From Candidatus Sumerlaeota bacterium (lineage in GTDB: Bacteria; Sumerlaeota; Sumerlaeia; SLMS01; JAHLLQ01), in assembly GCA_030156535.1 (NCBI GenBank), contig JASGMJ010000022.1:9987-73986 (forward strand): DNA of 64,000 nucleotides. Direction: 5' to 3'. Within the stretch, counting starts at the first letter, position 1, and the number at the start of each line of letters is the position of its first letter. The notes beneath the pieces are model-generated. The model had not been told where the DNA came from and did no database searches. It worked only from the letters and a program-made list of their open reading frames with translations. Positions 1 to 13,732 of this stretch are shown piece after piece. The translations under genes and the position numbers were made by a program.

Positions 1-668
1 TCGTAGAAGCCGGGAGTCTGTTGCACCAGCTGGACGCGCTCCGCCTGGGGGGTGGCGACGAACCATTGCTGGTCGGGTTCGGTGCGCAGGATGACAGTCG
101 CTTCGCCGCCCGAGCGCCAGCCGAGCAACTCGGGGGGTCCCTGCGTGGCGACTTCGCCCGGTGTCACGGTCATCGTGGCGAAGCCCTCGTCGTCGATCAT
201 TTCGGCGGCGGGGTCGGGCACTTCCTCCTCGTCGTTGACGAGGAACTTGTAGGTGAAAGCGCCTTCCTGGGCGGCGGGGATGTCGGCGATCCAGAGGCCG
301 TCGAGCGTGAGGTGCATCTGGTGCTTCGCGGGTTCGCCGTCCGTATTCTTCACGAGTGTGGCCACGGAGGTGACGCCGCTGCGTTCGAGTTCGACGTGCG
401 CCCAGGCGCCCTGGCCCGGGTCGATCAGGTCGAGCGGTGTGTCCTCCGGCACGGGAACGACGAGCTCGGTCTTGGGAAGGAACTCGAAACGGAACGCGGT
501 GCCCCGCACTTTGAACGCCGTAAGGATCATCCAGACCAGCGGCAGCAGAACAAAGAGCAGCAGCAGAACGAGAACGGCGTAGATCGCCGAGTCCCGAATG
601 GCGATGAGCGCCGGCGTCTGTGAGAGCGGCGGCGGGGAAGGGTTTTTGATGTCGGGCCGGCTGTCCAT
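1..668 (-). CDS. Carbohydrate ABC transporter permease, MalG/UgpE-type (5' part only, continues past window start), with a large insertion after TM1 carrying a CBM48/AMPK-beta-like glycogen-binding signature
   Basis: Not in the ORF track because it is open at the window edge. My reverse-complement translation from ATG at 668 gives MDSRPDIKNPSPPPLSQTPALIAIRDSAIYAVLVLLLLFVLLPLVWMILTAFKVRG..., i.e. a MalG-type TM1 plus the W-M-x-x-T-x-F-K motif. It starts 10 nt after the stop of the upstream MalF-type permease. The frame then stays open for more than 170 codons and includes HLTLDGLWIADIPAAQEGAFTYKFLVNDEEEVPDP. Confidence 0.6.
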   Translation of the reverse strand, partial: MDSRPDIKNPSPPPLSQTPALIAIRDSAIYAVLVLLLLFVLLPLVWMILTAFKVRGTAFRFEFLPKTELVVPVPEDTPLDLIDPGQGAWAHVELERSGVTSVATLVKNTDGEPAKHQMHLTLDGLWIADIPAAQEGAFTYKFLVNDEEEVPDPAAEMIDDEGFATMTVTPGEVATQGPPELLGWRSGGEATVILRTEPDQQWFVATPQAERVQLVQQTPGFY

Positions 669-677
669 CGGCGTTTC

Positions 678-1619
678 TTAATCCTTGGGAGAGAGAACCT
701 TGAAGTTGATGAAGGCAACGACGATGGCAATGCCGAGGAGGACAAAACTGATCGCCGCGGCTTCGCCGTACATCGATTCGTTGAAGACCTTGAAGAGGTG
801 GTAGCCGCTGATGCGGCCGCTTTGCAGCGTCGTGTCGAGCACGCGGACGCTGGTGCCGCCGGTGTCATCGGTCAGCGCGTAGATCTCGGCAAACGCGTTG
901 AGCGAGCCCACGAGCCCGGTGATCGAGAGGAACAGGATCGTGGGCTTGAGCATCGGGATCGTGATGTGGACGAGCTTCTGCCAGGGGTTGGCGCCATCGA
1001 CGTCGGCGGCCTCGAAGATCGAGGAGGAGATGTTGTTCAGGCTCGTCAGAAACAGGATCATGCCGAAGCCGGCGTTCTTGAGCACCATGACGAGCGCGAT
1101 GGCGGGCAGCACGAGCCACGGGTTGTTCAGCACCCCGGAATCCGCGAGCCCGTGGACCCCCGCCCAGTGCAGGAGCACGGAGAACAGGCCACCCTTGGGG
1201 TTGTAGATCAGCAGCCAGATCACGCCGACGACGTAGATGTCGAACACGTTGGGGAGGAAGAAGCCGCTGCGCAGGAGGGCGAAGCCGCGCCGCTTGCGGT
1301 TGAGCATCAGCGCCAGGGCCAGCGACATCGCGATGCCGGGCGCGATCATCAGCAGCGCATAGACCATCGTCAGGAAGATCGACCAGAGGAACACGGGGTC
1401 CTGGAAGATGCGCACATAGTTGCCGAGGCCGACGAACTCCATCGTGCCAAACAAGTCGTAGAAGTCCGAGTAGATCGTGACGCGGTACAGGCTGATGAAA
1501 AGACTGTAGAAGAGCGGGTAGCCGATGAAGACGACAAAGACGGCCATGAAGGGCAGCAGGAACGGTGCGGCCTCAAGGTCCTGACGAATCGAAATATGCT
1601 CGCGATGCTTGCGCGCCAT
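678..1619 (-). CDS. Carbohydrate ABC transporter permease (MalF/UgpA-type)
   Basis: 313-aa ORF with multiple hydrophobic TM segments. EAA-loop motif SIFEAADVDGANPWQKLVHITIPMLKP. Tightly packed between a GH13 gene and the second permease. Confidence 0.9.
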   Translation of the reverse strand: MARKHREHISIRQDLEAAPFLLPFMAVFVVFIGYPLFYSLFISLYRVTIYSDFYDLFGTMEFVGLGNYVRIFQDPVFLWSIFLTMVYALLMIAPGIAMSLALALMLNRKRRGFALLRSGFFLPNVFDIYVVGVIWLLIYNPKGGLFSVLLHWAGVHGLADSGVLNNPWLVLPAIALVMVLKNAGFGMILFLTSLNNISSSIFEAADVDGANPWQKLVHITIPMLKPTILFLSITGLVGSLNAFAEIYALTDDTGGTSVRVLDTTLQSGRISGYHLFKVFNESMYGEAAAISFVLLGIAIVVAFINFKVLSPKD

Positions 1620-4457: not shown

Positions 4458-6932
4458 ATGGCTAAAAGGATCGGAACAATTTTTATCGGAGCAGGGGCAC
4501 TCCTTCTGGCGGCGGGTTGCACGGCCAGGAATCCGCACGCACTGGCGCGGATCGGGGAGCACGAGACCGAACGCGTCTGGAAGGTGTCGAAAACGCCGGA
4601 ACCCCTTGGCGCGTTGACGATGATCCCCGGCGACGAGCGGCGGATCGGTCTGCGCGGGGCGGTTGCAGGGGAGGAAGTGCGGGTGCAATCAGCCAGCTAT
4701 GCCGCGGGCTCGGCGGAAATCCTTTCACTTTCATTTGTGCCCGGCGACGAAGAAATTACGGTTCGTGCAGTACCGGGAAAGGGTGGCGAGGGAGTCCTGA
4801 TTTTGAAAGCGATTACGTCCTCCGGCGAGCACGCTGAGCTTGCCGTCCCGTACAAGGCCGCGTTCCACCCCATCGTCACCTTCACCTATCGCCCGCCCGC
4901 AGGCGCCAGCCCCCAGCACGTCTTCGTCGCCGGAGCCTTCAACGGTTGGAGCAGCGCGCGTCATGAACTGCTCGACAGCGGCAACGGCGTGTACACGCTC
5001 GACCTTCCGGTTCCGCCGGGCAACTGGCCGTACAAGTTCGTCGTCGATGGCGAATGGATGGCCGATCCCGCGAATCCAAAGAGGGAGGCAGGCGGGCACG
5101 GCAACTCACTTCTCGACGTGGAGGGCACCTCGGCTGATGTCTTGACGTTCTCGCTGCTCTCGTCGGCGATGCCGGGCTCGGGCCCGCAGGGCGCGATCGC
5201 GCTGGCTTCCGGCTTCGACGAACCATTGGATCCCGCACGCGTTCATCTTGTCGTGAACAACGTGCTGGCCCCGCGTCAGTGGTGGAGCCTGGACGCGGCG
5301 GGGCAGACGGTGCGTCTGGCCATTCCGCCGGATCAGTGGCTCGACGAAAACTTTATCGTGCTGTTGGCGAGCGACACGGCCGGGCGTACGGGCATCTTTC
5401 AGTCGCGCGCCGACCTGCCGGGTGCACCGCGCTCGCCCCGCGACGAGGTCATTTACTTTGCCATGACCGACCGGTTCCTCGACGGCGATCCGTCGAACAA
5501 TCCCGTGCACACCGAGACGGAGGAAGAACTGCATCCGCTCGCACGCTATCATGGTGGCGACTGGCAGGGCATCACCACGAAGATCGACGAGGGCTACTTC
5601 GACAAGCTCGGCGTCACGTCGATCTGGCTCTCGCCCGCCAATCGCAACACCGACCGCATCGAGCAGGACGCGCTGCCTCCGCATCGCCGTTTCTCTTCCT
5701 ACCACGCTTACTGGCCCACGTCGCTGGACGAAACGAATCCCCCGTTCGGCACGGCACGCGAACTCGCCACCCTGGTGGACAACGCGCACGAGCACGAGAT
5801 CGCGATCCTGCTCGACTACGTTGCCAACCACGTTCACGAGACGCATCCCCTTGTCGCCGAGCACCCCGACTGGGTCACCGACATGCACACGCCCGACGGA
5901 CGCCTGAACATCCGCCTCTTCGACGAGTACCCGTTCACCACGTGGTTCGACAATTTCCTGCCGACGCTGGAATACCACGACAATCCCGAGCTCGTGCAGA
6001 CGATGGTGAAGAACGCGGCGTACTGGCTGGACAAAACGGGTGCCGACGGCTTTCGCCTCGACGCGGTGAAGCACGTCGATCCGGCGTACTGGACGGCGTT
6101 GTCGGAGGAGTTGTACGAGCGCTACACGCTCGGCCGTGGCGAGAACATCTACACGGTGGGCGAGACGATTTCCGACCGCTCGACGATCAACAAGTTCGTG
6201 GGGCCGGGCCTGCTGACGGGGCAGTTCGACTTCCCGCTGCTCTTCGCTCTTCAGGGGCCGCTGGGGCGCGGCGATGGGTCGTTCGCCGACGCGGCCGAGG
6301 CGGTTCTCGCCTCACAGGAAGAGTACCCCGCCGCTGGCGTGATGAGTCCGCTGCTGGGCAACCACGACGTGGTGCGCTTCATGGCGCTGGTCGATGGTGA
6401 CATGCCGCCGGGGGTGGACGAAAAGGAAGTGGGTTTCACGAACCCGCCCCGCGTGGATCGAGCTGATTCGCACGCCCGGATGCGCCTGGCGTTTGCGTTT
6501 CTCTTCTCGGTGCCCGGGCCGCCGACGTTGTACTATGGCGACGAGATCGGCATGACGGGCGCACACGATCCTGACAACCGGCGCTCGATGCGCTGGCAGG
6601 ATTGGAGCAGCGAGGAGACGGCGACGTTCGAAGCCGTCTCGCAACTGGCCCATGCACGCGGCGCGTCCGTGGCACTGCGCCGTGGACGCTATGAAATCGT
6701 GGCAGCGGGCGAGGACCACCTGGTGGCCGCGCGCGTGAGCCCGGAGGAAACGGTGCTGATCGCGATGAAGGCAGGCTCCGGAGCGGTGACGGCCGAACTG
6801 CCTGCGGCGTGGGGAAGCCCCGCGGCCCTGGAGCCCCTCGTGGATGGCGGCTTGCGGGCGTCCCTGGCGGGGGAGAGCGTGGAGTTCGCCGGGCCCTCGC
6901 AGGCCTACGGATACTGGATCGTGCGGTGGTAG
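4458..6932 (+). CDS. GH13 alpha-amylase lipoprotein with CBM48-like module
   Basis: GH13 regions LLDYVANHVH, GADGFRLDAVKHV, YTVGETISD, LLGNHDVVRF. Lipobox MAKRIGTIFIGAGALLLAAGC. VAGAFNGWSSARHELLDSGNGVYTLDLPVPPGNWPYKFVVDGEWMADPANP. GGAGGG lies about 10 nt upstream of the ATG at 4458; the track ORF starts at 4425. Confidence 0.9.
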   Translation: MAKRIGTIFIGAGALLLAAGCTARNPHALARIGEHETERVWKVSKTPEPLGALTMIPGDERRIGLRGAVAGEEVRVQSASYAAGSAEILSLSFVPGDEEITVRAVPGKGGEGVLILKAITSSGEHAELAVPYKAAFHPIVTFTYRPPAGASPQHVFVAGAFNGWSSARHELLDSGNGVYTLDLPVPPGNWPYKFVVDGEWMADPANPKREAGGHGNSLLDVEGTSADVLTFSLLSSAMPGSGPQGAIALASGFDEPLDPARVHLVVNNVLAPRQWWSLDAAGQTVRLAIPPDQWLDENFIVLLASDTAGRTGIFQSRADLPGAPRSPRDEVIYFAMTDRFLDGDPSNNPVHTETEEELHPLARYHGGDWQGITTKIDEGYFDKLGVTSIWLSPANRNTDRIEQDALPPHRRFSSYHAYWPTSLDETNPPFGTARELATLVDNAHEHEIAILLDYVANHVHETHPLVAEHPDWVTDMHTPDGRLNIRLFDEYPFTTWFDNFLPTLEYHDNPELVQTMVKNAAYWLDKTGADGFRLDAVKHVDPAYWTALSEELYERYTLGRGENIYTVGETISDRSTINKFVGPGLLTGQFDFPLLFALQGPLGRGDGSFADAAEAVLASQEEYPAAGVMSPLLGNHDVVRFMALVDGDMPPGVDEKEVGFTNPPRVDRADSHARMRLAFAFLFSVPGPPTLYYGDEIGMTGAHDPDNRRSMRWQDWSSEETATFEAVSQLAHARGASVALRRGRYEIVAAGEDHLVAARVSPEETVLIAMKAGSGAVTAELPAAWGSPAALEPLVDGGLRASLAGESVEFAGPSQAYGYWIVRW

Positions 6933-7357
6933 GGGCGTGACTGGCGGCGGGTATAAAACTTTAGTGGAGCCCGCCGCCGCAGCGCCGTGGCCAGGGTGTC
7001 AGCGAAGGTGGATGGAGCGGGTAAAGCGGAGCGAGAACAGCCGGCAGGGCAAGGCGTGGGGTTGTAACCGCTTTCCATGGCCCATTATCTGTCCGTCTCA
7101 TAAAAAAATAACGCCCCGTTCATTTATAACATCCTTTAAAACTTCCGCGAACGGCTTGACAGGGCACATCGAATGAAATGATGTTCTCCATGTCCACTTT
7201 AGAACGCGGTGCCCATTCCAGCGCACGCCTCCAGGTGGAAGATGTATCAGGGCGGATGTATCGCGGGCACAGTGGCCAATAGGGGCCTGCCGGGAAACGC
7301 CACCCAAGCGGATTGCACCCCGTGGAATCCACCATCCCAGAGGAGGTATCTCCAAGC

Positions 7358-8056
7358 ATGACGCAGTCTCGCATCAAAACCATTCGAACCGGGCAGGGCT
7401 TCACCCTGATCGAGCTCCTGATCGTGGTGGCCATCATCGCCATCCTGGCGGCGATCGCCGTGCCCAACTTCCTGGAGGCGCAGGTTCGCTCCAAGGTTTC
7501 CCGCTCGCTCTCCGATATGCGCACGATCCGCACGGCCCTCGAATCGTACGCCGTCGACAACAACAAATACCCGGAGACGGACTTGGGCCGCGCCGCCTAC
7601 AACGCGGGGTATCGCACGATCGACCGCCTCACCACGCCGATCTCCTACATCACCAGCATTCCGAAGTCCCCCTTCATCGAGAAGTTCGGTGCCAGTAACG
7701 CCACCGACCCCAAGATGGCAACGCTGCGCAATCACGTGCTTTATGTCCGCAAGGACCGCGCACGCTCGACGGACAGCGAGAACCCTACGGGCTCCGGCGT
7801 TGACGCAAACTACTACAGTGATCGCATCGCTTATCTTCAGCCCCCTCTGAGTGCCTCCATCCCCGTGCTCAACGGCATTGGCACAGCAGGCCAGTGGCTG
7901 ATGAAGAGCAACGGCCCCAACAACTTCGACGACCGTGAGGCCCCTCCCGTTGGCTTTGGGACAAGCGGCCGCGTCTACGACCCGACGAACGGTACTGCCT
8001 CTGACGGCGACATTGTCGTCTTCAGCGACCTTTCCGGCACGGGCAAGAACATCTAA
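7358..8056 (+). CDS. Prepilin-type N-terminal cleavage/methylation domain protein (type II secretion / type IV pilin-like pseudopilin)
   Basis: MTQSRIKTIRTGQG|FTLIELLIVVAIIAILAAIAVPNFLEAQVRSKVSR has class III signal features (G-1, F+1, E+5). GAGGAGG RBS lies upstream of the ATG at 7358. C-terminal YDPTNGTASDGDIV motif is shared with two paralogs in the window. Confidence 0.85.
   Translation: MTQSRIKTIRTGQGFTLIELLIVVAIIAILAAIAVPNFLEAQVRSKVSRSLSDMRTIRTALESYAVDNNKYPETDLGRAAYNAGYRTIDRLTTPISYITSIPKSPFIEKFGASNATDPKMATLRNHVLYVRKDRARSTDSENPTGSGVDANYYSDRIAYLQPPLSASIPVLNGIGTAGQWLMKSNGPNNFDDREAPPVGFGTSGRVYDPTNGTASDGDIVVFSDLSGTGKNI
7400..7504 (+). repeat. Conserved 105-nt pseudopilin N-terminal coding segment, copy A
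   Basis: Encodes FTLIELLIVVAIIAILAAIAVPNFLEAQVRSKVSR. The same 35 aa (one substitution in copy B) recur at 47986..48090 and 49030..49134. Nucleotide differences are mostly at third codon positions. Confidence 0.85.
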
Positions 8057-8178
8057 GGGATGGAGACACGGGGGCTGGTGTCTCTCCGGCCTCATCATCG
8101 TTGTTCGCACCATCCGAAACCCTGAACAATTCGACCACGAACGGTACCAACTCAACACACCCTCTGGAGGGTAATACC

Positions 8179-9810
8179 ATGCAGCAGCAATCGTTTCGCA
8201 CCGCTCTCGCGATTGGCCTGATTGCCGGAGCCGGCAGCCTGGCCTTCGCACAGGAAGGCAACACGACGTTCTTCACCGGCGAGCACGTTGTCGCGGGTGG
8301 AAATCTCCCGGCTTTTAGCAGCTTTGATCCCAGCGTCAATGACGCCACGAGCCGCATGTACAACGACGGCACGACTGCCGGCGACGTCAGCGCGTCCGAC
8401 CACATCTGGACCTACTCCGCCACTGGCATCACCCCTTCGGGCGACCCCCTTGCGGTTGAAACTTGGAAGATGGCGACTTGGGATGGCGTGGATTCGGGAA
8501 CCGCCTGGTCGCATGAGAGTCCGTCGGGTGGCGACGCTCTGTATCCCACCAACGAAGCGGCCGTGGATTTCTTCTGGGTGGACCCGGACGGTTCGATGGG
8601 CGACGGCTACCTGCCGGATAACAACTTTGTCTACACCTCGCCGAACAACATTGCGGCGCGGATGCAGGCAGCGAGCAGTTTTGCCATTTTCGGCAACTTC
8701 GGCACGGAGCTCGGTGCCACTGGTGACTGGGGAGACTCTGGCACCCATCTGTCGCTGACTCGCAATGCCAGCACGCAGGAGTGGGAGGTCACCCTCTCCG
8801 GCTGGCAGAACATCGGCAACAAGGAATTCAAGGCCGTAATGAACGGCGACTGGGGGCCCGGAAACGAAATCGGCACCAACGGTTTTGGTGGCGGCAACAT
8901 CAGCTTCTTCCTGCTCAACAAGGCCGACGTGGTGACCTTCAAGGTGCGCGAAGCCGACGGCCGCTACAAGTTTGAAGGCCTGACGCCGCTCCCCAGCACG
9001 GATGGCGTTTATGCCCTCGGACCGTGGACGACGACGCCCGAGACCGACAGCATGATGACATCGGTCGCAGATGGCTTTGAACTGACCGTGACCGTTCCGA
9101 CGGCCGGCCAGCAGACCCTGACAGTGTTCGAGATCTCCGGTGGTAATCTTGTCAAGCTGTGGCCGGGACAGGGCGCGCATCCCTTCAAGACCACGACCGA
9201 CAATCAGGAGATTCGCGTCAACCTGCACACCGCCTCCATGGCGGACGGTGCCTTCCCCGATTCCGACTTCATTTACACGGACCCGGCTTCTCGCATCGAC
9301 TTCACCGCTGCAGCCAACGCCCGTATCCAGATCGTCGGGCCGCTCAGCATGTGGGGCCTGCGCTATGGCGGCGACTTCGACAACCCCGCCACCGATGGCG
9401 TTGGCAGCAATGACCCCGTCGCCACACAGGTCGGCTCCGATGCGTTCCTGTATCGCTGGGACGCCCCGACGACCAACCACGGCACTCCTGCACCGGGCCT
9501 GACCAAAGAGTACAAGGCCGTTGCCGTTACTGACGACATCGCCATCTCGGCCTCGAACGCCTGGGCCATTCAGCTTGGTGGTGTCCATGACCTGACCGGC
9601 GAGGAACGCAAGTGCGGCCTCTCGCTGCTTGGCGACAACAAGAACCCGAGCTACGACTTCCTGGATGCGACGGACTACTCGTTCTTCGTCGACACGGCTA
9701 CCGGCCGCGTGAAGGTCCAGCTCGCCACGGATCCTGTCCCGACACTTCGTCCCGCCCGTGCGAACGACGCCGTCGGCGCCTCCAATGTTTCCGAGTGGAC
9801 CGCCTACTAA
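8179..9810 (+). CDS. Secreted protein with two internally repeated beta-rich modules (putative carbohydrate-binding), function unknown
   Basis: Signal peptide MQQQSFRTALAIGLIAGAGSLAFAQ, with GGAGGG RBS before the ATG at 8179. Internal duplication: DGYLPDNNFVYTSPNNIAARMQAASSFAIFGNF...EFKAVMNGDWGPGNEIG vs DGAFPDSDFIYTDPASRIDFTAAANARIQIVGPL...EYKAVAVTDD...AWAIQLGG. It lies 122 nt downstream of the pseudopilin on the same strand and is followed by a strong terminator. Confidence 0.75.
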   Translation: MQQQSFRTALAIGLIAGAGSLAFAQEGNTTFFTGEHVVAGGNLPAFSSFDPSVNDATSRMYNDGTTAGDVSASDHIWTYSATGITPSGDPLAVETWKMATWDGVDSGTAWSHESPSGGDALYPTNEAAVDFFWVDPDGSMGDGYLPDNNFVYTSPNNIAARMQAASSFAIFGNFGTELGATGDWGDSGTHLSLTRNASTQEWEVTLSGWQNIGNKEFKAVMNGDWGPGNEIGTNGFGGGNISFFLLNKADVVTFKVREADGRYKFEGLTPLPSTDGVYALGPWTTTPETDSMMTSVADGFELTVTVPTAGQQTLTVFEISGGNLVKLWPGQGAHPFKTTTDNQEIRVNLHTASMADGAFPDSDFIYTDPASRIDFTAAANARIQIVGPLSMWGLRYGGDFDNPATDGVGSNDPVATQVGSDAFLYRWDAPTTNHGTPAPGLTKEYKAVAVTDDIAISASNAWAIQLGGVHDLTGEERKCGLSLLGDNKNPSYDFLDATDYSFFVDTATGRVKVQLATDPVPTLRPARANDAVGASNVSEWTAY

Positions 9811-10171: not shown

Positions 10172-12172
10172 ATGAGTCCCAAGCGTCCGAAAACCGCGCA
10201 AGCCGCGCGCAAGTCCCTTTCTCCCCGCCAGCGTCTGTTGCTTGTCGCCTTCGGGTTGGGCGTGGCGTTGGGGTGCCTGCTCCTCGTGGAGATCACCCTG
10301 CGCGCCATGGGCTATGCGCGCCCGGACCCGTTCTTCGCCGAGGGACCGGACGTGCCCGGGTATGGAACGGTGCACGTGACGTCGGAGAATTGGGCGCGGC
10401 GGTTCTTCTTTCAGCGCGTCGATGGCAAGCGCCTGCCCGTGGGGAGTTCGGTGCCCCAGTACTACTTCACCCCGAAGCCGCGCGAGGCGTTGCGGGTGGC
10501 GGTGATCGGCGAATCAACGGTGCAGGGGTTCCCCTATCCGGCGAATCTTTCCATCAGCCAATACGTGCAGGCGCTCCTGCAGGACCTTGCCCCCGAGCGC
10601 GACGTGCAGGTGTTCAACTTCGGTTTCACGGCTGTGGCATCCTATCCGGTGTCGCGCGTCGTGGAGGAGACCGCCGTGCAAACGGAGTGCGACGCCGTTG
10701 TGATCCTCGTCGGGCACAACGAGTTCTTCGGTGCGTATGGAGTTGCTTCGAGTCAGTACGCCGGCAACTCGCGCCGGTTGCTCGCGCTTCACGAGGCGTA
10801 CAACGATCTGCGCTTCGTCAAGCTGCTGCGGGAGGGCATCGGGAAACTGGGGACGGAGTCAGATGCCGGGCAGGAAGCAGAAGGGGGCTTGATCAACTAC
10901 ATGGCGGCGGACAGCGGCATCGGGCCGGATGACGCGCGGCGCAGGACGGCGGCCACGTTGCTCGAAGCGAACGTGCGCTGGTCGATTCGTCACTGCCGCG
11001 ATGCCGGAATTCCGGTGCTTGTGGGCACGATGCCGAGCAACCTGTCGGGCTTTGCGCCGGTGGGGCGTTCGGTTGCCGCCCTGCCCGGGACGGACGAGGC
11101 ATTGAAGGAAGCGATGCAGATCGAGGAAGGGCCCGGGCGCCTGGCCGCTCTGGAGGCACTCGCCGAGAAGGACGCGAATCACGCGCTGCTGTGGTTTCGT
11201 CTGGGCGAGGCGCGCGAGAAGGCGGAAGACAACGAGGGCGCGCGGGTGGCGTTCGTGCGGGCCCTCGATCTGGACGGAATGCCTTGGCGCGCGCCGACAC
11301 TGTCGAACGAGGCGCTGCGCCGTGCGGCGGCGGAAGAGGGAGCCGCGCTCGCCGATTGCGTGGAATCGTTTCAGCAGGCAACGAAGTACGCCGCGCCCGG
11401 GTGGGACTTCTTCGACGACCACGTGCATCCGTCGCTGCGGGGCCGGATGCTTTATGCGCGCACGCTTGTCGATGGGCTGATTCCGCTGCTCGGGCTTGAG
11501 GGGCGTGAAGGGAGCCTGCGCGCGGACGAAGAGTACCAGCGCGAGCTCGGCGGCCAGCATCTTCTCTCCAGCCGCGAGGCGTACAACCGTCTCGGTTCGC
11601 TCTTCGAGGGGCCGCCGATGTCGGTCAACAACGAACAAGTGTACGGGAACTTCGTGAGGATCGTGAATGACCTGGATGCGCGGATGTTGCCGGAGGAAGC
11701 GAATGCGTGGCAGATCCACGGCAAGCTGGTGGAGGAAGGCGTTCCCGGTCCGCCGCCGGCGCTTGTGGCGGGCACGCTGATGATGCAGGCGGGGAAGTTG
11801 CGTCCGGCGATTTATCAGATGGGGATTGTGCGGCAGTCGCGGACGCTGTTCTCGATGCCGTGGGTGCAGGCGGCTTGGACAGAGGGGCATTGCCGCCGTC
11901 TGCTGGGCGAGCCGCTGGGGCCTGCCCTGGAGCGCGACCTCGACCGTGCGCTGATGGTGCTGGATGTGCTTCCACAACTCGAATCCGGGCCCGAGGCGGA
12001 GTTGCACAAGGCCCGTGGGCAGATTTACTGGGTGCAGGAGCGCTACGACGACGCCATCGCCGAGTTGGAGAAGGTCCTGGCCGTTGCGGAAAGCGACGAG
12101 GCACGCAAGGACGCGCGCACGTCGATCGAGGCCATCAAGGCGGAAAAGCAGGCCCGTATGGCGCAGCAGTAA
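10172..12172 (+). CDS. Membrane-anchored SGNH/GDSL-type hydrolase with inserted and C-terminal TPR-like repeats
   Basis: N-terminal TM LLLVAFGLGVALGCLLLVEI. SGNH blocks: VAVIGESTVQG (block I, Ser in GES), VILVGHNEFFG (block III, GxN), FFDDHVHPSLRG (block V, DxxH). TPR-like LWFRLGEAREKAEDNEGARVAFVRALDLD and KARGQIYWVQERYDDAIAELEKVLAV. Confidence 0.7.
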   Translation: MSPKRPKTAQAARKSLSPRQRLLLVAFGLGVALGCLLLVEITLRAMGYARPDPFFAEGPDVPGYGTVHVTSENWARRFFFQRVDGKRLPVGSSVPQYYFTPKPREALRVAVIGESTVQGFPYPANLSISQYVQALLQDLAPERDVQVFNFGFTAVASYPVSRVVEETAVQTECDAVVILVGHNEFFGAYGVASSQYAGNSRRLLALHEAYNDLRFVKLLREGIGKLGTESDAGQEAEGGLINYMAADSGIGPDDARRRTAATLLEANVRWSIRHCRDAGIPVLVGTMPSNLSGFAPVGRSVAALPGTDEALKEAMQIEEGPGRLAALEALAEKDANHALLWFRLGEAREKAEDNEGARVAFVRALDLDGMPWRAPTLSNEALRRAAAEEGAALADCVESFQQATKYAAPGWDFFDDHVHPSLRGRMLYARTLVDGLIPLLGLEGREGSLRADEEYQRELGGQHLLSSREAYNRLGSLFEGPPMSVNNEQVYGNFVRIVNDLDARMLPEEANAWQIHGKLVEEGVPGPPPALVAGTLMMQAGKLRPAIYQMGIVRQSRTLFSMPWVQAAWTEGHCRRLLGEPLGPALERDLDRALMVLDVLPQLESGPEAELHKARGQIYWVQERYDDAIAELEKVLAVAESDEARKDARTSIEAIKAEKQARMAQQ

Positions 12173-12184
12173 CGCGCCTGCTTG

Positions 12185-13732
12185 CTACATCACGCGCTTG
12201 AACATCGAGTAGTTCGTCGCGTGGCCGCGGTCGACGGAACGGAACATTCGCACGCCCTTGGGCGGCAGCGTCACCGTCAACGTGCCCGCGTGCAGAGTGG
12301 TGCGCTCGCCGGTGAGGAGGCACTCCATCGGCGCCGCGTCCATCCAGAGCGAGTAGCGCACCGGGATCAACTCCGTCACCGTTTCGCTCGTCGAGGGATT
12401 CGCAACGATGAGCACCGTGTCGATGGCGTGCTCGGAAGTGCGCAGAAAGCACACGAGGCGTTCGGCGTCGAGCACACGGCAGTCGCCGTGAATGAGCGCC
12501 GGGTTCTTCCGGCGCAGGCGCAGCAGGCGGCGGATGAAGGCGTACTCGGGGTTGTCGTCGTTCACGAGATCCCATCGCATCGCCCCACGGCAGAAGGGAT
12601 CGTGCCCGCCCTCCATGCCGAGTTCAGAGCCGTAGTAGATCGTGGGGCAGCCGGGGAGCGTGAACTGCAGCACGCGCAAGAGCTCGCGCATGGCGATATC
12701 CGGCACGAGGTGGGGCAGGCGCGCCGTGTCGTGATTGTCGAGGACGAGGTGGCTGCGCAGAAGGCCGTCGTAGTCGCATTCGTCGAGCGCGCGCTGGAGG
12801 GCACGGTTGAACGCGGCGGGGGAGAACCTGCCGGCGGCGAGTGCGAGCATCAGTTCGCGCCAGTGCATGAGCAGGATGCCGTCGAGCACGGTGAGCCAGT
12901 CCTGCGGGTAGTTCCAACATTCGCCAACGACCCAGGAGCCTGGTTTGGCCTCGTGGGCGCAGTTGGTGAGGTCGCGCAGAATGGCGGGGCCGAGGTCGGG
13001 TGCGACGTCCAGGCGCCAGCCGTCGATGCCCTCGTTGCTCAGATACTGGCGCACGATGCCGTCCTCCGCGGCGTAGAGCCAGTCGCGGACGGCCGGGTTC
13101 TCCAGATTGAGCTCCGGCAGATTGGGGACGTTGCGCCATCCGCGCCATCCATTGCGGAACTGCTCTCCGATGTAAAAGAACTCTGCTCCGTCCCCGGTTT
13201 CCAGTGCCTTCTCGAAACAGCGCGCGTGCCGTCCCATGTGATTGAACACGCCATCGAGCATCAGGTACATGCCGCGTTCGTGCAGACTGGTGGCGAGTTG
13301 CTTGAGTTCGGCGTTGGTGCCGTACTGCGGGTCCACGCGGCAGTAGTCGCCGGTGTCGTACTTGTGATTGGTCCACGCCTCGAAGATGGGATTCAGATAA
13401 ACCCATTGAACGCCAAGTTGCTGGAGGTAATCGAGCTTGGCGCGGAGCGATTCGAGGTCGCCGCCCCAGAACTCCAACTGTCCCTCGACGATTCCCTCGG
13501 GTTCGATGCGGTGGCCGCGCTGGGGCGTGTCGCTCCACTGTTTCAGACGGCGCGGCGGGGCGTAGTGCTCGCGTTTGGCATCGAGGCGGCTGGAGGGCGC
13601 AAAGCGATCCACGATGATCTGGTAGACGACGGCACCGATGCGCGGGTCGTGGCGGCGTTCTTCGATGCGCCGATGGCGCTGTTGCTCGATGGCGCTGAAC
13701 AGGGCGGGGTTTTCGGTTTGCTCGTGCGTCAT
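12185..13732 (-). CDS. Cytoplasmic GH13 alpha-glucosidase / maltodextrin-hydrolysing enzyme
   Basis: GH13 regions MLDGVFNHMG, GIDGWRLDVAPDL, WVVGECWN, VLDNHDTARL. No signal peptide. The ATG at 13732 (MTHEQTENPALF...) avoids an implausible P/S/T-rich extension of the track ORF (to 14014) that would overlap the upstream gene. Confidence 0.85.
   Translation of the reverse strand: MTHEQTENPALFSAIEQQRHRRIEERRHDPRIGAVVYQIIVDRFAPSSRLDAKREHYAPPRRLKQWSDTPQRGHRIEPEGIVEGQLEFWGGDLESLRAKLDYLQQLGVQWVYLNPIFEAWTNHKYDTGDYCRVDPQYGTNAELKQLATSLHERGMYLMLDGVFNHMGRHARCFEKALETGDGAEFFYIGEQFRNGWRGWRNVPNLPELNLENPAVRDWLYAAEDGIVRQYLSNEGIDGWRLDVAPDLGPAILRDLTNCAHEAKPGSWVVGECWNYPQDWLTVLDGILLMHWRELMLALAAGRFSPAAFNRALQRALDECDYDGLLRSHLVLDNHDTARLPHLVPDIAMRELLRVLQFTLPGCPTIYYGSELGMEGGHDPFCRGAMRWDLVNDDNPEYAFIRRLLRLRRKNPALIHGDCRVLDAERLVCFLRTSEHAIDTVLIVANPSTSETVTELIPVRYSLWMDAAPMECLLTGERTTLHAGTLTVTLPPKGVRMFRSVDRGHATNYSMFKRVM

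Follow-up and report, generated by a model that had tools for sequence, protein, structure and literature searches.

The window, by which we mean the whole 64,000-nucleotide stretch of DNA analysed, begins inside a gene of an uncultured Sumerlaeota bacterium. Judging from its sequence, the gene encodes the membrane subunit, of MalG/SugB type, of a sugar ABC importer of the CUT1 family. Very probably, this permease carries a CBM48-derived module within its polypeptide chain. The original prediction had proposed such an embedded CBM48-like module, and sequence, profile and predicted fold all supported it. The two parts are each ordinary, the core being that of a CUT1 permease and the module a CBM48, and their combination is known from automatic Pfam annotation. 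Our literature search found no paper describing an ABC permease with a CBM, of family 48 or otherwise, and a review of glycoside transporters in bacteria, from 2026, made no mention of one, in keeping with the earlier statement that there was no characterised example. The interest lies in the family, of which the window member is a degenerate example.

The permease ORF starts with an ATG at 668..666 on the minus strand, 9 nt after the stop of the upstream MalF-like gene (678..1619); its other end lies outside the window, past the window start. By translation, the window holds the 5' part of the gene (1..668, minus strand; codons 1-222 of 475), with 253 codons lying beyond the window start. An exact-sequence look-up of the MalF-like protein retrieved a 14.6-kb public contig (SRR23823798, here L001) that was 100% identical to the window across all 10,110 shared nucleotides and reached 4.4 kb past the window start. 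The complete gene occupies L001:9443-10870 and has 475 codons. As had been supposed, the ORF continued into a permease core. In a phmmer search of the PDB, residues 246-474 matched SugB (E = 2.1e-28, SugB 44-273) and E. coli MalG (E = 1.6e-19), and the TM1 region aligned weakly (query 25-67 with SugB 4-47). A precomputed PF00528 (BPD_transp_1) match was present on the 475-aa product. The 222-aa window fragment gave no Pfam match at E ≤ 1, the permease core falling outside the window. As query for a word-indexed search for homologues, the fragment likewise returned no match, and the full-length protein worked. The EAA-type loop AAEIDGANNAQVFSKIVIPVCLP was present, and the AlphaFold helices together with five clear hydropathy peaks (TM4 fell under the cut-off) were compatible with six TM segments in the MalG pattern. 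In Foldseek, the best matches of the full-length model were SugB and MalG (TMt 0.60-0.66). Permease chains dominated the results, the first CBM48 match appearing at rank 50, and with the full-length alignment as a profile only permeases were retrieved from the PDB, CBM48 being found with the insert-only profile. The full model was also matched to MalF chains, with an rmsd of ~15 Å that is not meaningful.

Hydropathy, AlphaFold and conservation placed TM1 at residues ~27-52 (513..590, minus strand), after a short N-terminus. The hydropathy peak spanned residues 31-49 and the AlphaFold helix residues 19-51. TM1 ends in LPLVWMILTAF (to the lysine, LVWMILTAFK; LPLVWMILTAFK), and its P43, W46 and M47 were invariant among the 108 homologues. 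The original prediction had described TM1 with its WMILTAFK motif followed by more than 170 residues up to the window edge, and in the translation TM1 was followed by 170 residues without a hydrophobic segment. Directly after TM1, alignment with two orthologues that lack the insert, P0082 (289 aa) and P0091 (305 aa), defined a conserved segment, KVRGTAFRFEFLPKT (residues 53-67; 468..512, minus strand), in which G56 and P65 were invariant. This segment is common to the insert-less orthologues, and the insertion starts immediately behind it. The two orthologues shared 64-66% overall identity with the window permease and aligned with one clean gap, at ~residues 69-240, between LPKT(E) and RPFAEAL. 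Thus, both they and the alignment with SugB, which has essentially nothing at this place, confirmed that the loop is abnormally long, the insertion between TM1 and TM2 amounting to about 172-178 residues.

The TM1-TM2 loop should lie on the periplasmic side, because the EAA-type loop must be cytoplasmic and because the helix pattern and the MalG/SugB topology agree with this arrangement. The insert itself was net acidic, with 13 K/R against 30 D/E. From homology to MalG and SugB, in which this loop is periplasmic, from the helix pattern and from the charge, we infer that the insert is periplasmic, as had been expected.

An AlphaFold2 model of the full-length protein, built with 108 homologues, had a pLDDT of 91.3 and a pTM of 0.79, and the pLDDT was 94-98 across the insert. 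The insert modelled by itself reached a pLDDT of 95.4 and a pTM of 0.89. In both models the insert was all-β, and AlphaFold divided it into two β-sandwiches, at ~residues 85-170 and ~178-240. Domain 1 (residues ~85-170; 159..416, minus strand) is a diverged β-sandwich of the CBM48/AMPK-β GBD type by sequence, profile and fold. The start of domain 2 (residues ~178-222 of ~178-240; 1..137, minus strand) is cut by the window edge. Its strands were predicted at residues 181-239 with a pLDDT of 94-98, Foldseek gave tandem-Ig matches, and in the model it is an Ig-like β-sandwich, for which no particular family emerged. Structure modelling, which had been suggested as a check, yielded two confident β-sandwiches, the first superposing on CBM48. 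Judging from the high pTM, the insert may occupy a cap position on the permease.

The assignment of domain 1 came from several kinds of search. The Pfam models CBM_48 and AMPK1_CBM gave no match at E ≤ 1 with the 222-aa fragment and none at E ≤ 0.01 with the 189-aa insert. An hmmscan check with these models and BPD_transp_1 had been proposed; it was positive for BPD_transp_1 on the full product and negative for both CBM models on the window sequence. A phmmer search of 1.8 billion representative proteins with the window fragment found its own family and also non-permease proteins, at library-wide E-values of ~1e-6 to 9e-4. The latter matched query stretches within ~residues 86-183, and a Pfam scan showed CBM48/AMPK1_CBM repeats in seven of the nine that were checked. 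The other two were P0133, a noisy multi-domain protein including CBM_48, and P0132, without a CBM48 match. A family profile made from an alignment of 42 inserts matched pullulanase 5ot1 (E = 1.5e-7) and the AMPK-β1 GBD 1z0n (E = 6e-7) in the PDB, as well as GlgB, CBM48-esterases and SEX4, the E-values for PDB CBM48 modules running from 1.5e-7 to 1e-5 overall. Aligned by hhalign with the CBM48 of a neighbouring GH13 enzyme (residues 148-235), the same profile gave 97.7% probability and E = 2e-12. The insert model superposed in Foldseek on 3vgb (rmsd 2.7 Å over 80 columns), 1z0m_B (TMt 0.76, rmsd 2.8 Å), 1z0n_A (TMt 0.66) and 3nme (rmsd 3.0 Å), with modest E-values of ~1e-3. Among the 42 homologue inserts, 16 passed Pfam CBM_48 on their own, the best at E = 1e-14. 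A third round of homologue searching with the insert profile added 12 small CBM48 proteins and zero new permeases. Since the fragment search, the family profile, hhalign and Foldseek agree, domain 1 is taken as a homologue of the CBM48/AMPK-β GBD.

The neighbouring genes gave a consistent setting. The partner permease (678..1619, minus strand; 313 aa) is MalF/SugA-like, matches BPD_transp_1 only (PF00528, E = 2.2e-13) and is too small to accommodate a P2 domain like that of MalF. Upstream of it lies a GH13 α-glucan hydrolase, 837 aa as called in L001 (1641..4154, or up to 4226, minus strand), with matches to Alpha-amylase (E = 1e-41) and AMPK1_CBM (E = 3e-5). A second GH13 gene is divergent (4458..6932, or from 4425, plus strand; 824 aa; Alpha-amylase E = 4.5e-41) and has a canonical CBM48/AMPK1_CBM module (E = 3.4e-10). 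The motif likeness on which the original prediction was based held up: the quoted peptide DGLWIADIPAAQEGAFTYKFLVNDEEEVPDP occupies residues 123-153 of the permease, the neighbour motifs GEYAYKFVAAPDIWESDP and GNWPYKFVVDGEWMADP occur in the minus-strand and the divergent plus-strand GH13 enzyme, respectively, and the resemblance is far beyond chance. Two antisense ORFs further along (7247..8251 and 8152..9588, minus strand) are probably spurious, as they had no Pfam match and the L001 gene calls there are on the plus strand.

With the binding protein read from L001, the operon order was GH13, MalF-like permease, MalG-type permease and substrate-binding protein. The binding protein gene encodes 474 aa, overlaps the permease gene by 4 nt and has SBP_bac_1/8 matches. 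Its product begins with a lipobox-like LLLLAAC, and its matches in the PDB were weak and mixed. No ATPase gene adjoined the permease operon. The order permease-permease-binding protein was also seen in loci L003, L007, L008, L089 and L090, and in L024 when read from ORFs; L006 was without an adjacent binding protein gene. Locus L003 also encodes a separate AMPK1_CBM protein, next after the binding protein. GH13 genes adjoined the permeases in several loci, namely L001, L089 and L090, and the insert-less forms kept the GH13-GH13-permease-permease-SBP context. Judging from the adjacent GH13 genes, the transported substrate would be an α-glucan or maltodextrin.

This gene order bears on whether the insert could serve as a docking platform for the substrate-binding protein, as MalF P2 does for MalE. 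The 313-aa partner has no room for such a P2 domain, and the binding-protein gene lies directly next in most loci. By homology, moreover, the topology puts the insert on the face that meets the binding protein in MalFGK2-E and LpqY-SugABC, and the full-length pTM of 0.79 suggests that the insert and the membrane domain have a definite arrangement. However, insert-less orthologues share this operon, and the binding protein of one of them, L089, is an orthologue of the window's (59% identity), so that docking can do without the insert. The surface of the insert is also poorly conserved. We therefore regard a docking function as unlikely. For the same reason, the insert is an accessory, outside the core transport machinery: permease cores that lack it occur in this operon context, alongside an orthologous binding protein.

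To map the sugar site, the AMPK sequence was aligned with all 108 inserts. The four AMPK-β1 positions W100, K126, W133 and N150, the last of which we take to be a further sugar contact, could then be followed through the family. In the window protein, W100 corresponded to G111 (338..336), K126 to K141 (248..246), W133 to E149 (224..222) and N150, within a loop (L146-N150) whose alignment is less certain than that at the tryptophans, to F163 (182..180), all on the minus strand. Thus, the lysine alone was kept. The alignment was unambiguous at both tryptophans, where the canonical FNxW reads NTDG here and the canonical NGxxWxxDP reads NDEEEVPDP. By comparison, both GH13 modules of the window keep the canonical W, K, W and N; in the N-terminal AMPK1_CBM/CBM48-like module of the upstream enzyme they stand in AGTFNSWN...YAYKFVAAPDIWESDP...GNSLL. 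The shared GxW, YKF and DP motif is, on the aligned sequences, mostly a signature of the fold plus the one kept lysine. This carries a caution: for the window copy, resemblance to a CBM at the level of motifs gave the correct fold and not the function.

The complete W-K-W-N tetrad was present in 24 of the 108 homologues. Within a canonical set of 27 members, both tryptophans and the asparagine were 100% conserved and the lysine 96%. Glucan binding is the best inference for the family because the sugar site is invariant in these canonical members. The 71-member clade that includes the window protein showed no conservation at the four site columns, keeping only residues of the fold core (W126 at 96%, G124, A99, V102 and E93), and its column equivalent to N150 was often aromatic (W, F or Y). 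A third group, which includes the sole Blastocatellia-labelled sequence, had D-H-x-E at the four positions.

The clade of the window protein also has residues of its own that are absent from the canonical group: H91 (68%), R120 (62%), P72 (93%) and R235 (89%). Together with the fold kept despite loss of the canonical site, and with the secreted GH13 enzymes encoded alongside, they might indicate that the CBM48 scaffold has been re-used through a new surface, either for another glycan or for holding the CBM48-bearing GH13 enzymes beside the importer. The same residues may, however, be structural or contact the membrane domain, and we consider re-use of this kind quite improbable. A cap that has kept its fold and lost its canonical site still seemed to us the better description of the window insert.

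The full-length protein retrieved more than 100 full-length homologues with the insertion (430-525 aa, 42-69% identity), so that the expected search for MalG homologues with the same insert was amply rewarded. Many more distant homologues had precomputed matches to CBM_48 and AMPK1_CBM (and X25) along with BPD_transp_1. The named sources were Sumerlaeota/Sumerlaeia, Brocadiae, Blastocatellia and Dependentiae. A scan of GTDB genomes added Planctomycetota MAGs, and there the nearest full-length relatives were all Sumerlaeota MAGs, at 42-58% identity. One member, of 453 aa, was located in a complete genome, that of Candidatus Uabimicrobium amorphum SRT547 (L024 6395-7756).

The insert and the core differed greatly in their divergence. 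Between the window permease and its nearest relative, P0002, identity was 42% in the insert versus 90% in the core, and against every other permease compared it was 18-32% in the insert versus 65-83% in the core. From these identities, the insert in the window lineage would appear to evolve several-fold faster than the core. The core regions were used for a neighbour-joining tree with ordinary MalG-like proteins as the root; it is a rough tree, without support values. In it, the insert-bearing family was monophyletic. Canonical W/K/W/N members occupied several deep branches, including P0061 and P0069 at the base of the Sumerlaeota group, and the degenerate clade with the window protein was nested within the insert-bearing family. 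The insert-less P0082 and P0091 and the one-domain P0077 and P0049 nested, in turn, in the degenerate clade. Read most simply, this pattern would mean that a functional CBM48 and Ig pair was gained once, that its site later eroded in the window lineage and that the insert was deleted on occasion. The family thereby forms a natural series, with an intact site, an eroded site (the window protein included), one domain or no insert, which makes the question of function testable.

In this scheme, the module would have been acquired once, as a canonical α-glucan-binding CBM48. In the canonical quarter of the sampled members, to judge by the residues retained, the insert probably still holds chains of maltodextrin or α-glucan where the importer opens to the periplasm. 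In the window lineage, the site would have eroded to G111, K141, E149 and F163, and some descendants would have deleted one or both domains. The window copy would then be a degenerate scaffold of CBM48 origin whose canonical affinity for α-glucan is slight or absent, and which probably persists as a folded cap or spacer on the periplasmic side. We think this the likelier account of the window copy and hold it with reasonable, not high, confidence. Some observations weigh against it. The fold has been preserved, with high predicted confidence, in ~70 of the degenerate-clade members sampled, which points to a remaining function. CBMs can bind through other surfaces, K141 is kept and the clade is often aromatic at the N150 column, and both GH13 neighbours point to α-glucan as the substrate of the pathway.

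A working α-glucan- or glycogen-binding module in the window protein, capturing oligomers released by the GH13 enzymes for the binding protein or the translocation pathway, would fit several of the results. The CBM48 homology and fold, the GH13 genes adjacent here and in L089 and L090, the kept K141 with the aromatic F163 at the N150 equivalent, and the complete site in canonical relatives are all consistent with it. Against this, both stacking tryptophans are replaced. In rat AMPK-β1, W100, K126, W133, L146 and T148 contact bound cyclodextrin, and the W100G/W133A double mutation, equivalent to the change seen here, abolishes the effects of glycogen, oligosaccharide and cyclodextrin (PMC2642990). 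In addition, the window sequence has no Pfam CBM_48 or AMPK1_CBM match, the site columns are unconserved in its clade, the insert is fast-evolving and relatives have deleted the module. It seems improbable, then, that the window copy binds glucan in the canonical way. The delivery of glucan put forward in the original prediction is thus plausible for the canonical subgroup and doubtful for the window copy, in which W100, W133 and N150 have become G111, E149 and F163; for the latter we keep to a degenerate cap or spacer.

The family raises a wider possibility, which we put forward tentatively and think rather unlikely as a whole: that the CBM48 permeases are an undescribed class of importers holding an α-glucan chain above the pore, and that in Sumerlaeota, including the window, the scaffold has been re-purposed and is not simply decaying. 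If this were true, the canonical W/K/W/N members could take up long dextrins in a tethered fashion. In type I ABC sugar importers, the substrate is thought to be recognised only by the soluble binding protein and a few pore residues. A CBM in the membrane subunit would add a third point of recognition, at least in the canonical members, and this could explain the handling of long α-glucan chains at the inner membrane.

Among known systems, MalG of MalFGK2 and SugB of LpqY-SugABC (PDB 2r6g, 7cad, 8ja7) are the closest to the permease. They resemble it in TM1 and in the whole core (246-474), in the EAA-type loop, in an arrangement of helices that fits six TM segments, and in being accompanied by another permease and a binding protein of family 1. 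MalG, however, has only a short loop and SugB essentially none where the window permease has ~172 extra residues forming two β-sandwiches. Domain 1 shares its fold, and detectable homology, with the CBM48/AMPK-β GBD modules (PDB 1z0m and 1z0n; pullulanases, branching enzymes, SEX4 and CE1 esterases), and in the canonical permeases the W/K/W/N sugar site is intact. The window copy departs from CBM48 in the replacement of W100, W133 and N150. Elsewhere, CBM48 is an appendage of enzymes or of a kinase subunit, whereas here it lies inside a polytopic membrane protein.

Two further comparisons are functional. The P2 domain of E. coli MalF is periplasmic, has about 180 residues, lies between TM3 and TM4 and contacts MalE, not the sugar. 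It offers an analogy of function for the insert, being a large accessory domain lodged between two TM helices in a subunit of a maltodextrin importer; it belongs to the other subunit and is unrelated to CBM48. In GlnPQ, OpuA and the Bdellovibrio MalE-MalF fusion, binding domains of the class I/II fold are fused terminally to the membrane subunit and replace the free binding protein. The likeness there is an extracytoplasmic, ligand-capturing domain carried covalently on the translocator, whereas the window permease has a CBM fold within a loop and a separate binding-protein gene. By analogy, then, MalF P2 and the fused-domain importers are the nearest functional counterparts of the inserted module, and both differ from it in fold, position and partner.

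The insert of the window permease varies in extent among its close relatives. P0077 (393 aa) and P0049 (408 aa) keep a single β-sandwich and lack the CBM48 part, and the orthologues P0082 (289 aa) and P0091 (305 aa) carry no insert at all. The core identity of these four proteins to the window protein is 64-74%. Together, they form a natural deletion series of the insert.

The sugar site also varies in a separate subgroup (P0092, P0094, P0098, P0099, P0101, P0104, P0109, P0112, P0116 and P0120), which has D-H-x-E at the four positions equivalent to AMPK-β1 W100, K126, W133 and N150. Its members include the only sequence labelled Blastocatellia. The NJ tree of the core region, which carries no support values, nested this subgroup among the canonical members. 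This placement suggests that the site changed independently in the subgroup and was not lost in common with the Sumerlaeota clade.

Candidatus Uabimicrobium amorphum SRT547 (NZ_AP019860.1), a named planctomycete strain whose genome is complete, encodes a further family member (453 aa; locus L024, 6395-7756). This gene lies in the same permease-permease-SBP cassette as that of the window protein. By eye, the CBM48 of this member kept the first Trp (FNEW), and the Lys and second Trp seem to be lost (YYYQF and NGSVRVPD). The strain is a possible system for experiments. In the canonical-clade locus L003 (10780-17192), the binding-protein gene is followed by one for a 322-aa AMPK1_CBM protein and then by two tandem copies of a four-gene block, which encodes an AMPK1_CBM-like protein, a 135-aa protein, a PHP-domain protein and a PilJ/MCP chemoreceptor. 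The second copy has a shorter CBM-like gene (265 aa), whose match is only faint.

Downstream of the divergent GH13 gene in the window, gene calls mapped from the identical contig L001 placed two plus-strand genes. The first (7358-8056) encodes a 232-aa pseudopilin-like protein with N_methyl (prepilin-type) and T2SSG matches, and the second (8179-9810) a 543-aa protein with no Pfam match. Two long minus-strand ORFs, of 334 aa (7247-8251) and 478 aa (8152-9588), had no Pfam matches either. Since the gene calls on L001 are on the plus strand, these ORFs are probably artefacts of a G+C content of 64.6%.

Past the window start, L001 encodes the cognate binding protein (10867-12291, 474 aa). A lipobox-like LLLLAAC is located near its N-terminus, and the protein may therefore be membrane-anchored. 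Its top PDB match was 9xf5, which its depositors named only generically, as 'ABC transporter substrate-binding protein'. Typical maltose-binding proteins are about 50 residues shorter.
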